From Eledone cirrhosa (lineage: Eukaryota), in NCBI GenBank assembly GCA_964016885.1, contig OZ024741.1, positions 102,114,001 to 102,178,000 of the forward strand: 64,000 nt of DNA. Reading direction: 5' to 3'. Under the pieces are notes generated by a model. The model had not been told where the DNA came from. It saw only the letters and a list, made by a program, of their open reading frames with translations, and did not search any database. The translations under genes and the position numbers were made by a program. Positions 1 through 31,881 of the stretch are shown piece after piece; position 1 is the stretch's first letter; each line of letters begins with the position of its first letter.

Positions 1-1133
1 TTGGAAGTCTACATTTGAAGTGAGTGCAAATAAAAATCCATGATTAGAGACCGTGGAGTTTTCAGAATTTATGGTTAAATGCTGAATATAAGAATGAATC
101 TACAACTAGTTTTTTTATTTAACAGGTATATAAAGTAGATAAAGCAGTTATGAAAATATCTCTAATTGAAAGTTAATGAGACATACATAATGAAGACTTA
201 GACATTGTACATTGGCTGACAATATAGCAATTAGCAAGTGATAGTGTTGATGTAGTAAAATATGAGTGAAACCGAGGTTCAATATTATCTTCTGAAGGCA
301 TTAGATAGCCCATTTCATGAATCGAGGAGGAGATATTTCGTAGATTCAGAAGTGATTGACTATATACACTCTGTTCTTTTAACCAAATTTTACTCTGAAT
401 TAATGTGTACTTAGAAATGTGGTGTACATATGATATCTGTTTCGGTTATATTACCAGTTTTTCACTAATAACACGGAGATAATACCGGTATTGGGAGGGG
501 GAGGCTATATTTTACAATAGATGTGGACCTATTACTAGTTTCGCGGACCCACATTTTACATGTGGCCTGGGTCTAATACCCCACTTGTGGGCCTACATTT
601 AAGAATTGATCTTGACTTACTACAAGTTTTAACGGGGTTCATTTCTTAGCTCATATAGGTGCTATTATTAGCTTTGTGGGTCTAAATTTCAGAACAAAAC
701 TAGAGCTAGTAGCCGTTTCATGAGACTTGATTTCAGAAATGGGCTGGCTCCTTTATCGGCGTAAGTGGGTCCACATTTCAAAAACTGACATTGGTATATT
801 ACCAATGGTAGGTACCTACTTACCTATTACACCCGACTTATTACCAACTTTGGTGTCTTAATTTAAATTGATCTGGTCCTATTTCCAGCTTTGGGAGAAT
901 CTATTTCAAATTTGGTCTAGTCCAAATACCAGCTTTGGGGACCTTAACATCAATGTAGGGGTCCCATATTTCACAACTATCCCTGGAGGAATGCCATCAC
1001 CAGTAGATTTACTTTGGGGTTGACGGTGTGCTAATTTTCACAATGAAGTCTTGGACATTGTACCTTAGCTGACATTATAGCAATTACCACGTGATAGTAT
1101 TGATGTAGTTAAATATAAGCAGCGCTTACAGTT

Positions 1134-1228
1134 GCCTCGGTAGCGCAGTAGGCAGCGCGTCAGTCTCATAATCAAAAGTAATTCTTGGAGGAATCTGAAG
1201 GTCGTGAGTTCGATCCTCACCTGGGGCA
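1134..1228 (+). tRNA. tRNA-Met-CAT: Elongator tRNA-Met(CAT) with 22-nt intron (1171-1192), intact
   Basis: GCCTCGG/CTGGGGC-A acceptor stem, A box TAGCGCAGTAGG, anticodon arm TCAGT-CTCATA^A-TCTGA, B box GTTCGATCC, downstream T-runs; 73 nt after intron removal. Confidence 0.93.
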
Positions 1229-2581
1229 CATTTATTTTGATTTTCATTATTTTTTTGTGGGGTTAAATATTATATCCTAAAGGCATTAGAAAGCCTTTTT
1301 CATGAATCGAAGAGGAGATATTTCGTAGATACAGAAGTGATTAACAATATACAAAAACATATACTAGTTTTGGGGGTCCACTTTTCACATTTGGCCTGTG
1401 TCTAAAACCATACTTGTCGGCCTATGTTTAAGAACTGATCTTGACACATTACCAGTTTTAGCGGAGTTCAATTCTAAACACTCATGGTTCCATTATTAGC
1501 TTTGGGTGTCTAAATCTCAGAACTAACCTGGAGCTATTAACCATTTCTGTGACTAGATTTCACAATTGGGCTGGCCCGTTTATCAGCGTAAGAAGGTCCA
1601 CATTTCAAAAATGACATTGGAATATTACGAATTTTAGGTTTCTAGCCCAACTAAACCGGAATTATTACCAACTTTGGTGTCTAAATTTCAATAGACCTGT
1701 AAATATTTCCAGCTTTGGGAGATTAGATTTCAAATTTTGTCTGGTTCAAACACCAGCTTTGGGGACCTACATTTAATATTCTATTTGGCCCTTAATATCA
1801 ATTCAGGGTGTCGATATTTCACAACTGTCCCTGGAGTAATGCCATCACTAGTAAATTTATTTTGGGGTTGACGGTGTGCTAATTTTCACATCTCACGAGT
1901 TTTGGTAGTCTACATTTGATAATAGATTCGGGCCTATTCCTAAGTTATGGAGGTTACGTTTTACATCTGACCTGGGACGATTATCAATTTCTGTAGCCTA
2001 CATTTTACACTTCACCTGGTTATATAAGCAGATTTCTTTACGGAATGGGTGTACACTTCACTTCTCATCTGGGCCTATATTCTGGTTTGCATGGGCTTAA
2101 TTATAAATACGGTGAAATAGCCTGATTCGTGCGTGTGTGTGTGGGGGGGTGGTGGCTCTACATATCAATATTTGTCTGGTCTTTAATACCAATTTAGGAG
2201 GCTAATGATTCAGGACTGTCCTTGGATAATTGACTTCACCACGAAATTTATTTAGGGGCTGTGGGTATGCTATATTTAATATCTCACGGGTTTTGGGAGT
2301 CTACATTTGAAGTGAGAGCAAATAAAAATCCATAATTATAGACCGTGGAACTTTTAGAATTTATGGTTATCACATTAGCACAAGAATGAAAGTACAACTA
2401 GTTTTTTACTTAACAGATAATTAAAGTATATAAGATATAATAGAGCAGCTATCGAAATAACTCTAATTAAACGTTAATGAGAGATACACATTGAAGTCTT
2501 GGACATTGTACATTGGCTGACGTTATAGCAATTAGCAAGTGGTAGTGTTGATGTAGTTAAGTATAAGAAGAACTGTTAGTT

Positions 2582-2676
2582 GCCTCGGTAGCGCAGTAGG
2601 CAGCGCGTCAGTCTCATAATCAGAAGTAATACTTGGAGGAATCTGAAGGTCGTGAGTTCGATCCTCACCTGGGGCA
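2582..2676 (+). tRNA. tRNA-Met-CAT: Elongator tRNA-Met(CAT) with 22-nt intron, intact
   Basis: Exons identical to the 1134 copy; intron ATCAGAAGTAATACTTGGAGGA. Confidence 0.93.
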
Positions 2677-3547
2677 CAATTATTTTGATCTTACTATTTT
2701 TTTGTGAGGTTCAATATTATCTTATAAAGGCATTAGAAAGCCATTTCATAAATCGAGAATGAGATATTTCGTAGATTCAGAAGTGATTGACTATATACAA
2801 TGTGTTCTTTTAACCAAATTCTACACTGAATTAATGTGTACTTAGAAATGTGGTGTACATATGATATCTGTTTTGGTTATATTACCAGTTTTTCACTAAT
2901 AACACGGAGATAATACCGGCATTGTGAGGGGGAAGCTATATTTTACAATAGACTTGGACCTATTACTAGTTTCGGGGACCCACATTGTACATGTGGGCCT
3001 ACATTTAAGAATTGATCTTGACTTATTACAAGCTTTAGCGGAGTTCATTTCTTAGCTCATATAGGTGCTATTATTAGCTTTGTCGGTCTAAATTTCAGAA
3101 CAAAACTAGAGCTAGTAGCCGTTTCATGAGACTTGATTTCAGAAATGGGCTGGCCCTTTTATCAGTGTAAGTGTGTCCACATTTTAAAAATTGACATTGG
3201 TATATTACCAATTGTAGCTACCTACATATCCAACTACACCCGTCTTATTACCCATTTTGGTGTCTAAATTTCAATTGATCTGGGAGAATCTATTTCAAAT
3301 TTGGTCTGGTCCAAACACCAGCATTTGGGGACCTACTGTTCACATTTGATCTGGCCCTTAATACCAATTTAGGGGTCCCATATTTCACAACTATCCCTGG
3401 AGGAATGCCATCACCAGTAGATTTACTTTGGGGTTGACGGTGTGCTAATTTTCACAATGAAGTCTTGGACATTGTACCTTAGCTGACATTATAGCAATTA
3501 CCACGTGATAGTATTGATGTAGTTAAATATAAATAAAGCTTGTAGTT

Positions 3548-3642
3548 GCCTCGGTAGCGCAGTAGGCAGCGCGTCAGCCTCATAATCAAAAGTAATAATT
3601 AGAGGAATCTGAAGGTCGTGAGTTCGATCCTCACCTGGGGCA
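3548..3642 (+). tRNA. tRNA-Met-CAT: tRNA-Met(CAT) with 22-nt intron, single T31C variant
   Basis: Exons match consensus except TCAGC at the base of the anticodon loop; intron ATCAAAAGTAATAATTAGAGGA. Confidence 0.85.
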
Positions 3643-29710: not shown

Positions 29711-29821
29711 TGTTTCTACGTTAGGCACAAGGCCAGCAAATTACCCAGTGTATTACTGGTACTTTATTTTATCGACCCCGTAAGGATGAAAGGCAAAGTT
29801 AACCTCGGCGGGATTTGAACT
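29711..29821 (-). mobile_element. 5'-truncated Nin-core SINE with 13-bp TSD
   Basis: CAAAGCTAATAAT at 29698-29710 and 29822-29834, inserted inside a satellite monomer. Confidence 0.88.
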
Positions 29822-30214
29822 CAAAGCTAATAATCGCACCACGTGAGCTAAGAAATGAACGCCGCTAAAACTTGCAATTCTTAAATGTAGGCCTACAAGA
29901 ATGGTATTAGACCCAGGCCAAATGTGAAACGTGGGCCCCCATAACTAGTAATATATCCAAGTCCCCCTCCCAATGCTGGTATTATCTCCATGTTATTCTT
30001 GAAAAACTGGTAATAAGACCAAAATAAGTATCATATGTACACCACATTATTAAGTACACATTAATTCAGAGTAAAATTTGGTTAAAAGAACAAATTGTAT
30101 ATAGTCAATCACTTCCGAATCTACGAAATATCTCATTCTCGATTCACGAAATAGACTTTCTAATGCCCTCAGATGATAATACTATTGAACTGAAAAATAG
30201 AATAATATAAAGTG

Positions 30215-30309
30215 TGCCCCAGGTGAGGATCGAACTCACGTCTTTCAGATTCCTCCTAGTATTATTAGTGATTACGGGCCTGTGGCGCTGCCTACTGCGC
30301 TACCGAGGC
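30215..30309 (-). pseudogene. tRNA-Met-derived copy, anticodon CGT, disrupted anticodon and D stems
   Basis: Acceptor and T arm intact; CACAGG-CCCGTA in the anticodon arm. Confidence 0.75.
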
Positions 30310-31141
30310 AACTGGCAGTGCCACTTATATAACTACATCAACACCATCACTTGCTAATTGCTAGTGTCAGCCAATGTACAATGTCCAAGATTTCATTATG
30401 TATCTCTCATTAACTTTTAATTTGAGATATTTCGATAGCTGCTTCATTATATCTTATCTACTTTAATTACCTGTTAAATAAAAAAACTATTTGTACTTTC
30501 ATTCTTGTGCTAAGGAGATAACCATACATTCTGAAAACTCCACGGTCTATAATTATTGATTTTTATTTGCACTCACTTCAAATGTAGACTCCCAAAACCC
30601 GTGAGATGTTAAATGAAGCCCACCCCATTTGCTGGTGATGGCAACTCTCCAAGGACAGTCGTGAAATTTAGACCCCCTAAATTGGTATTAAGGGCCAAAC
30701 CAAATGTAAAATGCAGAGCCTCCCCACATCTGGTATCTGGACCTGAATAAATGTGAAATCGAAGCTGCAGATGTTGGTAATACGCCCAGACCGATCTAAA
30801 TTTAGACACCAAAGATGGTATTGTGTCCTCGTTATTTGAAAAAAATTGACCCCTGTCATTTTCTAAAATACATTCTTACTTAAGTTGATAAAAGAACCGA
30901 GTCATGTCTGAAATCTTGTCCCCCGGAACGGCTATAAAGCTGAGGAGGTCAGTTTTGGAATTTAGGCACCGAAAGCTGGTATTATCTCCATGTTATCTGT
31001 GAAAAAATGGTAATAAGTCCAGACCAAATATTGAATGTACACCACCTTTCCAACTGTCCATTAATTAAGTGTACAATTTTGTTAGTAGTAAATTGGTTCG
31101 GAGGATAATATAATTAGATAAAAATAAATAAAAAACAACAC

Positions 31142-31236
31142 AGCCCTATGTGAAGATCGAACTGACGACTTTCAGATATCTCTAAGAATAACTTTTGATT
31201 ATGAGACTGACACGCTACCTGCTGCGCTACCGACAG
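31142..31236 (-). pseudogene. Highly degenerate tRNA-Met(CAT) copy, last of the array
   Basis: Anticodon arm and intron recognisable; acceptor and T stems broken. Confidence 0.72.
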
Positions 31237-31881
31237 GACTGTTGTTTCTGCCTATTTAACTACATCAAATCTATCACTTTTTAATGACTATGTTGTCAGC
31301 TTATGCATCATACTATATCGAACACTTCATTGAGTATCTGAAATTAACTTAAATTATATATTTACATTCTTACTATATTATTCCCCTATTTACTTTAACT
31401 ACTACCTCCTAACAAACTGGTTGTATTTTCAGTCTAGTGTAGGGGAGATAACTTTAATTTCTGAAATCTCTTGGACCTCTATGAACATTAGCATATTTTC
31501 CCTTTTTTTTTGTGGAAAGGAGAAAACCTCACATTCGGAAATACTTCGTAATTTATATATGAGATTTTTACATAGTATGTACTACCATAACTGTAATTAA
31601 TTAAATACCATCGATTATTTTGAACTTACAAATAAGAATGTGAAATCAAGGATGTAAGCCTAAGTAAGATGTGAAATGTCTAGTAATAGGCTCTAGTGAG
31701 ATATGATATGTAGGCCACTAAAGCCTGTGACAGGCACAAGTCAGTTGCGAAAACTGGTATTAAGACCAGACCAGTTGTAAAATGAGGTCCATAAAATTGG
31801 TAATAGGTGTCAAGTCCAATGTGAACTGTAGGGCCTTTAAGCTGGTAATAGCACCAGTCTGTTGTGAAATTAATACATACA

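Follow-up and report, generated by a model that had tools for sequence, protein, structure and literature searches.

The locus in the left half of the analysed window raises the question of why copies of a tRNA-Met gene of Eledone cirrhosa are repeatedly accompanied by arrays of a degenerate 44-bp repeat, and whether these arrays have a function. The window is a stretch of 64,000 nucleotides (assembly GCA_964016885.1, contig OZ024741.1, positions 102,114,001 to 102,178,000) of animal DNA with ~36% G+C, rich in microsatellites. The cluster of tRNA-Met(CAT) genes with the fossil minisatellite, which is not confined to one strand, occupies positions 1..31874; its left edge is open, and its right end is marked by an (AC)n run at 31875. 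Judging from the sequence, the locus is probably a birth-and-death cluster of elongator tRNA-Met genes, duplicated together with an older, decayed 44-bp minisatellite. Because the arrays decay as fast as the adjoining plain DNA, the minisatellite is likely a passenger without a present job.

The ~44-bp satellite reported in the initial annotation is real. In positions 1-31900, lag 44 is the highest autocorrelation peak among lags 15-200, followed by 88, with 229 5-mer pairs (median 35, z 18.7) and a base identity of 0.306 against 0.268 (z 7.8); in 32000-64000 it falls outside the top 12 lags. A weight matrix was seeded from the six monomers reported to start at 20329-20549, which proved to be true monomer starts exactly 44 bp apart, and was grown to convergence; its consensus agrees with the one originally proposed at 42 of 43 defined positions. 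At the threshold of 8 bits, 249 monomers were found below 32 kb and 2 above, the chance expectation from Markov-shuffled sequence being 2.2 per 32 kb. A profile hidden Markov model (HMM) gave 268 matches left of 31900, including 209 at E<0.01, and no monomers at E<1 right of it, in agreement with the statement that the satellite is not seen past ~31.9 kb. Exact spacing holds for the six named starts, but not for the locus as a whole, where neighbouring monomers are exactly 44 bp apart in 93 of 212 gaps and 41-46 bp apart in 143. Tandem Repeats Finder, which had been suggested as a check, reported no 44-bp array, although the autocorrelation still peaks at lag 44.

The spacers between the tRNA genes had been described as strings of satellite monomers. 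Monomers are indeed present there, but they account for just 33% of 1-31874 and monomer runs for 40%, the spacers being otherwise made up of non-periodic, AT-rich DNA, several hundred bases of which flank every tRNA. The start of the locus, placed earlier at 490, also had to be moved: the first monomer lies at ~456 and repeats of the tRNA flanks begin at base 1, so that the locus extends past the left edge of the window. The last monomers, at 31874, form the right boundary of the cluster. Duplications of at least 300 bp make up 81% of 1-31874. No coding open reading frame (ORF) was seen in 1-31.9 kb when frames of at least 100 aa were read by eye.

The alignment of 12 array copies, with near-identical duplicates and divergent arrays left out, gave a consensus of 17 monomer positions, the position consensuses being 55% alike. 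Identity between monomers at the same position of different units is 0.838 (600 pairs), versus 0.512 between different positions of one unit (930 pairs), and the closest relative of each of the 150 monomers compared occupies the corresponding position. The satellite is therefore older than the amplification of the units, as the initial annotation had supposed. In this respect, identity between units at the same position exceeding identity within a unit, the locus is a higher-order satellite. It is not a long homogeneous head-to-tail array: its ~20 units are 70-99% alike, lie on both strands and are interrupted by non-repeat flanks, microsatellites and short interspersed nuclear elements (SINEs). 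Clustering of ~247 monomers yielded 38-61 classes with 12-28 singletons, while the main unit has 17 positions; together with the four unique monomers past the outermost tRNA, this points to an ancestral array longer than the unit.

Organization of the locus is represented by four nested levels, namely, the 44-bp monomer, the tRNA unit of ~1-1.6 kb, the three-gene block of ~3 kb and recent duplications. The full unit consists of upstream flank, tRNA, downstream flank, array and tail and is ~1.56 kb long, the tRNA copies ending at 16422 and 14864 being 1558 bp apart; its length is 0.8-1.45 kb after deletions and 1.68 kb with a SINE. Arrays are 83-88% alike between units. Units follow each other head to tail, but are fragmented and broken by inversions; of the claim that tRNA and satellite were amplified as one block, co-amplification into a higher-order repeat thus holds, and a single clean block does not. 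The three-gene block is present at 14.75-17.7, 23.45-26.3 and 28.5-31.5 kb, with 85.6% identity between 15255-18123 and 23453-26277 in self-BLAST. The youngest duplications, both direct and inverted, are 90.6-99.4% alike over aligned lengths of 0.4-2.2 kb and include the pairs 1-1134 / 4911-6044 (98.6%) and 20646-21764 / 27907-29023 (99.4%). The next run downstream of 19 of the 22 tRNA copies or halves is one of same-orientation monomers, 134-454 bp off; the next downstream run of whatever orientation lies at 134-714 bp.

All tRNA copies derive from one gene, that of elongator tRNA-Met, with the anticodon CAT, G at position 1, a standard T-loop and an intron of 21-22 nt after base 37; the marks used to separate elongator from initiator tRNA-Met are those we take to be diagnostic. 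The Rfam model RF00005 gives a score of 52 bits and places the insert 3' of the anticodon. BLAST revealed 19 complete or almost complete copies (8 on the plus strand, 11 on the minus strand) and 3 halves. Rfam passes 12 copies, and ARAGORN reports 3, labelled Ile or Leu, which were rejected because the intron displaces the anticodon.

Relative to the majority sequence, the exons are unchanged in 5 of the 19 copies, carry one change in 2 and 3-14 changes in 12; the anticodon is changed in 5 copies and lost in 1. The five perfect copies represent four lineages with no difference in the 73 exon bases, against 8-14 differing sites in the upstream 36-45 bases and 1-4 in the introns. This contrast between identical exons and diverged surroundings indicates, at the sequence level, purifying selection on the tRNA exons or conversion limited to them; a signal of selection was seen solely in these exons. 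A run of at least four T lies within 7 bases of the end of each perfect copy. Accordingly, a single isotype is represented by some copies under purifying selection and others in decay, the pattern of birth-and-death evolution.

The same tRNA-Met with an intron, of 13-36 nt, was found in at least 131 metagenome stretches, and several of these metagenome contigs, in which the tRNA sequence is animal-like, carry 2-3 copies less than a few kb apart. The pattern had no matches in viral contigs and one in a prokaryote assembly (L128, a 1-kb contig), where a eukaryotic tRNA gene is probably contamination. None of 128 other loci with this intron-bearing gene in metagenome and prokaryote contigs carries the monomer. 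A scan of the metagenome and prokaryote genome contigs with the monomer pattern likewise gave no matches, a weak negative, as these collections hold little animal DNA. No description of the 44-bp monomer or of such a cluster was found in the full-text literature, a scope that lies outside subscription papers, Dfam and Repbase; PMC4536317, PMC4758252 and PMC12168002 contribute nothing about the locus. The intron itself fits the canonical eukaryotic site 37/38, one base 3' of the anticodon, and the length range of 6-133 given in PMC4090602, with no difference from it. High tRNA-derived copy numbers are given for a squid genome in PMC6962438.

The initial annotation had suggested a chromatin, insulator or recombination role for the satellite. 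If so, the array could be a functional partner of the tRNA gene, either as a repeated protein-binding site, e.g., of a lineage-specific zinc-finger protein, or as a nucleosome-positioning tract by which an RNA polymerase III (Pol III) gene domain is established or delimited. Such a partnership is unlikely. It would agree with the same-orientation array close downstream in 19 of 22 tRNA copies and with the coincidence of the end of the monomers with the end of the cluster, but co-duplication by itself accounts for this linkage. The rates of change, counted per cell against the unit consensus with the non-repeat flanks as neutral yardstick, are the same in array and flank: 0.069, 0.066 and 0.065 at A+T and 0.132, 0.117 and 0.092 at G+C for the array, 5' flank and tail, respectively. 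Pairwise distance is 0.171 in the array, which is richer in G+C, and 0.134 in the flank (36 pairs). None of the 20 deletions of at least 5 bp in the arrays is a multiple of 44; 18 are internal (5-42 bp) and two are long truncations, and every deletion, like the SINEs, breaks the phase. Two SINEs were inserted independently inside arrays, with target-site duplications of 11 and 13 bp, and for one of them the site is empty in a sister block.

Further tests of function gave the same picture. Arrays are kept equally well with and without tRNA, their divergence being 0.079, 0.088 and 0.121 beside perfect tRNAs and 0.076, 0.099 and 0.104 in units without tRNA, and two of the five perfect genes, those ending at 21370 and 28629, lack a same-orientation array downstream. 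Of 34 exact matches to the TFIIIC-type B-box motif, one falls in an array, the remaining ones in the left half being tRNA or SINE copies. Ends of duplications are not in excess in the arrays by a rough measure (88 of 217 end clusters, against 44.6% expected, p 0.25). The suggested chromatin, insulator or recombination role is thus not borne out. A role of the monomer as a hairpin or cruciform was rejected, since there is no folding excess (z 0.15) and no covariation in its short inverted repeat. A protein-coding origin of the arrays was rejected as well, no frame being conserved across copies. Searching for the satellite via mis-predicted proteins, with a profile built from 13 translated array stretches, returned nothing in two word-index protein searches; an exhaustive protein search with the array profile returned 5 weak matches (four long bacterial-type repeat proteins and one unnamed 56-residue repeat), which were rejected as summed weak repeat matches. 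For an animal repeat, these protein searches carry little weight.

Several results weigh against regarding the arrays as passengers, some of them in favour of partnership with the tRNA gene. Change is slower in columns agreeing with the monomer consensus than in mismatching ones, both at A+T (0.052 versus 0.095, ratio 0.55) and at G+C (0.119 versus 0.161, ratio 0.74). A neutral simulation with equal rates, run on the unit tree (FastTree), gave ratios of 0.80+-0.14 and 0.97+-0.11, respectively, so that the observed values lie ~2 standard deviations (SD) off; with rate differences between monomer positions, the simulation gave 0.59-0.62 for A+T and 0.61-0.68 for G+C. Mutation context can account for the slow consensus columns, although weak constraint would look alike. 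Overall, the more a column is conserved across positions, the less it has changed recently (Spearman -0.50, p 0.0005), but the correlation is weaker within base classes (A+T -0.38, p 0.07; G+C -0.05, p 0.83). At mismatch columns, 59 of 129 derived alleles are identical to the monomer consensus, with 47 expected, and this would be compatible with slight conversion. The flanks that serve as neutral yardstick are themselves only presumed neutral, a chromatin role needing just bulk repeat DNA would give no sequence signal, and the evidence covers 32 kb of one genome.

The monomer might instead be a genome-wide dispersed minisatellite, or a repeat from inside an old non-autonomous mobile element, tied to the tRNA by the accident of one insertion; this would still make the arrays passengers, only with a different origin. 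The large number of monomer classes and singletons compared with the 17 positions of the main unit, as well as the four unique monomers past the outermost tRNA, could be read in this way. The probability of such an origin is low: no monomer occurs in the right half of the window (32 kb), whereas a SINE family is present in both halves, and no coding ORF was seen among the frames read in 1-31.9 kb, mobile-element terminal repeats having had no specific test. A very unlikely possibility is that the 44-mer is an old lineage-specific mark of tRNA clusters genome-wide, those of other isotypes included, which is read by a DNA-binding protein in a chromatin role tolerant of phase breaks and would be an animal counterpart of the tRNA arrays of Entamoeba. 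Finally, it is highly improbable that the higher-order structure is partly an artefact of assembly, in which two haplotypes or wrongly joined reads ended up in tandem. The 98.6% and 99.4% pairs might suggest this, but most copies are 70-92% alike, SINE insertions are both common to copies and private, 51-55% of sampled words of 1-5000 occur in three public contig sets (one sample, possibly the source), and at most the youngest pairs would vanish. Of seven sequencing runs listed as sharing words with the sequence, one from a second organism has a small share (0.10), to which no weight is given, and none listed is of RNA.

The cluster with a passenger minisatellite probably arose as follows. A 44-bp sequence grew into a tandem array, which decayed until neighbouring monomers were ~55% alike, and a tRNA-Met gene with AT-rich flanks was presumably situated in or beside it. 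The unit of flank, tRNA, flank, ~17 monomers and tail (~1.56 kb, or 0.8-1.7 kb after deletions) was copied head to tail, then the three-gene block, and then, as direct and inverted duplications, segments of 0.4-2.2 kb. The likely mechanism is unequal crossing-over between whole units, accompanied by inversions and deletions joined at microhomology. The exons of a few copies are kept identical by selection while most copies decay, and the monomers, no longer homogenized, accumulate changes as fast as the flanks do.

Along the left part of the locus, tRNA-Met(CAT) genes with majority exons are located on the plus strand at 1134..1228, with the 22-nt intron at 37/38, and at 2582..2676, followed by a copy with one exon change at 3548..3642 (+). 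The array at 456..1008 (+) belongs to a unit whose tRNA is deleted, and its duplicate lies at 5366-5918. Here the whole tRNA gene was cleanly removed, with the flanks joined near 270 (225-300 and, in the duplicate, 5135-5210), and the tRNA-less unit was duplicated afterwards. Within 1379..5918, plus-strand arrays are found at 1379-2202, 2887-3422 and 3794-4620, in addition to that at 5366-5918. At 6035-6050, the upstream flank of a tRNA meets a reversed monomer where the gene should start, across a short shared word, which looks like an inversion joined at microhomology. The region 6461..7372 (+) contains two degenerate tRNA copies, at 6461-6555 (9 changes, anticodon TAT) and 7278-7372 (7 changes), and a divergent array of 7 monomers (6802-7157) between them.

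The minus-strand monomer runs of 8031..9517 comprise a divergent one at 8100-8363 and others at 8705-8934 and 9035-9517; the pair of degenerate tRNA copies in 9713..10727 (-) has 3 changes and the anticodon CGT at 9713-9807 and 6 changes at 10633-10727. A pseudogene without the anticodon and most of the intron is present at 11835..11912 (+), and a tRNA-Met(CAT) copy with one change in the T-loop/B-box at 13006..13100 (+); the arrays of 12133..14056 (+) span 12133-12698 and 13310-14056. Copy 1 of the three-gene block, 14754..17721 (-), holds tRNAs ending at 17574, 16422 and 14864, with 13, 6 and 9 exon changes, respectively, and the most complete array, of 17 monomers, at 15361..16166 (-). A partial array without tRNA lies at 17817..18157 (+), with a counterpart at 25973-26283.

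The gene at 19980..20073 (+) has majority exons and a 21-nt intron, and the reference array of 15 monomers at 20280..21062 (+) contains the six starts named above. The gene at 21276..21370 (-), also with majority exons, is the one without a same-orientation array downstream whose nearest upstream array is 2.2 kb off. Copy 2 of the block, 23453..26277 (-), holds tRNAs ending at 25730 and 24604, the match ending at 23453; copy 3, 28519..31470 (-), holds those ending at 31236, 30309 and 28629, the last with majority exons. The four outermost monomers, each of its own class, lie past the last tRNA at 31669..31874 (-).

Of the two SINEs inserted in arrays, the one with the 11-bp target-site duplication, 16964..17158 (+), is also present in block copy 2 (25147-25313), its site being empty in copy 3; the other, truncated at the 5' end, lies within a monomer at 29707..29823 (-), with the 13-bp duplication. 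Copies of this tRNA-type family, the central part of which may resemble a conserved SINE domain, are 79-92% alike to the first one and are found at 10921-11135, 16992-17158, 23050-23211, 25147-25313 and 29707-29823 in the left half of the window and at 34984-35159, 50992-51134, 51904-52096, 54171-54361 and 55358-55474 in the right half. At 19614-19704 and 26844-26930, the 3' half of tRNA-Met is fused to a SINE fragment, in opposite orientations. The segments 18161-18800 and 27477-27893, an inverted pair 95% alike, are made up of further degenerate, SINE-like remnants of tRNA origin, which enclose two monomers. The tail of one unit has received a dispersed repeat of 250 bp (23210-23456 and 61319-61567, 79% alike), the ends of which presumably resemble those of non-autonomous Helitron-like elements.

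Right of the cluster, at 39602-43223 (+), a broken RTE-like long interspersed nuclear element (LINE) in three frames shows matches to endonuclease, reverse transcriptase and, several times, C-terminal C2H2 zinc fingers. Its closest named relatives are 46-61% identical, the highest value being that of the reverse transcriptase to an Octopus bimaculoides protein (61%); this likeness is a weak clue to lineage, as LINEs of this type are transferred between phyla. Together with the microsatellite load and the SINE, the LINE suggests an invertebrate, perhaps a cephalopod. The zinc fingers at its C-terminal end are noteworthy. Farther right, at 55769-57082, pieces of another reverse transcriptase lie on the minus strand and a weak match to GIY-YIG on the plus strand, perhaps the remains of a LINE and of a Penelope-like element.

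The locus is a clean local record of the growth and decay of a tRNA cluster, with four nested levels of duplication, SINE insertions that give their order and selection on a few exons. Such loci are likely under-annotated, as ARAGORN (three genes, labelled Ile or Leu) and Tandem Repeats Finder (no 44-bp array) miss both of its parts. Should the monomer turn out to be tied to tRNA clusters genome-wide, the reason for the occurrence of tRNA genes in repeat arrays would become testable in an animal.

Divergent monomers frozen within a larger, younger unit, as here, are known from the spacer sub-repeats of ribosomal DNA (rDNA) and 5S genes and from the higher-order repeats of alpha-satellite. The rDNA sub-repeats are enhancers and vary by whole units, and alpha-satellite forms megabase arrays without genes; neither trait was found at this locus.

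The initial annotation had drawn a loose analogy with the arrays of tRNA genes and short tandem repeats (tRNA-STR) in Entamoeba. As described in PMC2652664, E. histolytica and E. dispar have 25 array types with ~4,500 genes, which make up >10% of the genome; the repeats are mostly of 7-12 bp, few reaching 44, many isotypes are represented without clear pseudogenes, and the units are uniform within an isolate while the repeat number varies, the function being obscure. The likeness extends to tRNA genes in tandem units with repeats between them, which here are 0.8-1.7 kb long and run head to tail with inversions. Unlike the short near-identical repeats of Entamoeba, the 44-bp monomers are 51% alike and are missed by Tandem Repeats Finder; instead of uniform units, arrays are 83-88% and units 70-99% alike, on both strands, with 0 of 20 deletions in register. 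Pseudogenes, not evident in Entamoeba, are represented here by 12 of 19 copies with 3-14 exon changes, 6 anticodons being changed or lost, and in place of many isotypes there is one, with ~20 copies in 32 kb. Thus, as far as the source describes these arrays, the locus shares their tandem units but none of the other three features compared, and it is not of the Entamoeba type.

Chromosome 1 of Arabidopsis contains 27 three-tRNA units that, according to the abstract of PMC2886086, arose by unequal crossing-over and are subject to concerted evolution, their copy number being thought to drift neutrally. The cluster described here differs in its birth-and-death evolution, inversions and many dead copies, as well as in the cryptic minisatellite of its spacers, of which that abstract makes no mention. 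Local growth of tRNA genes by unequal crossing-over and a higher level formed by three-gene units would be common to both. On the portrayal given in these sources, the locus works more like the three-tRNA array of Arabidopsis than like the arrays of Entamoeba.

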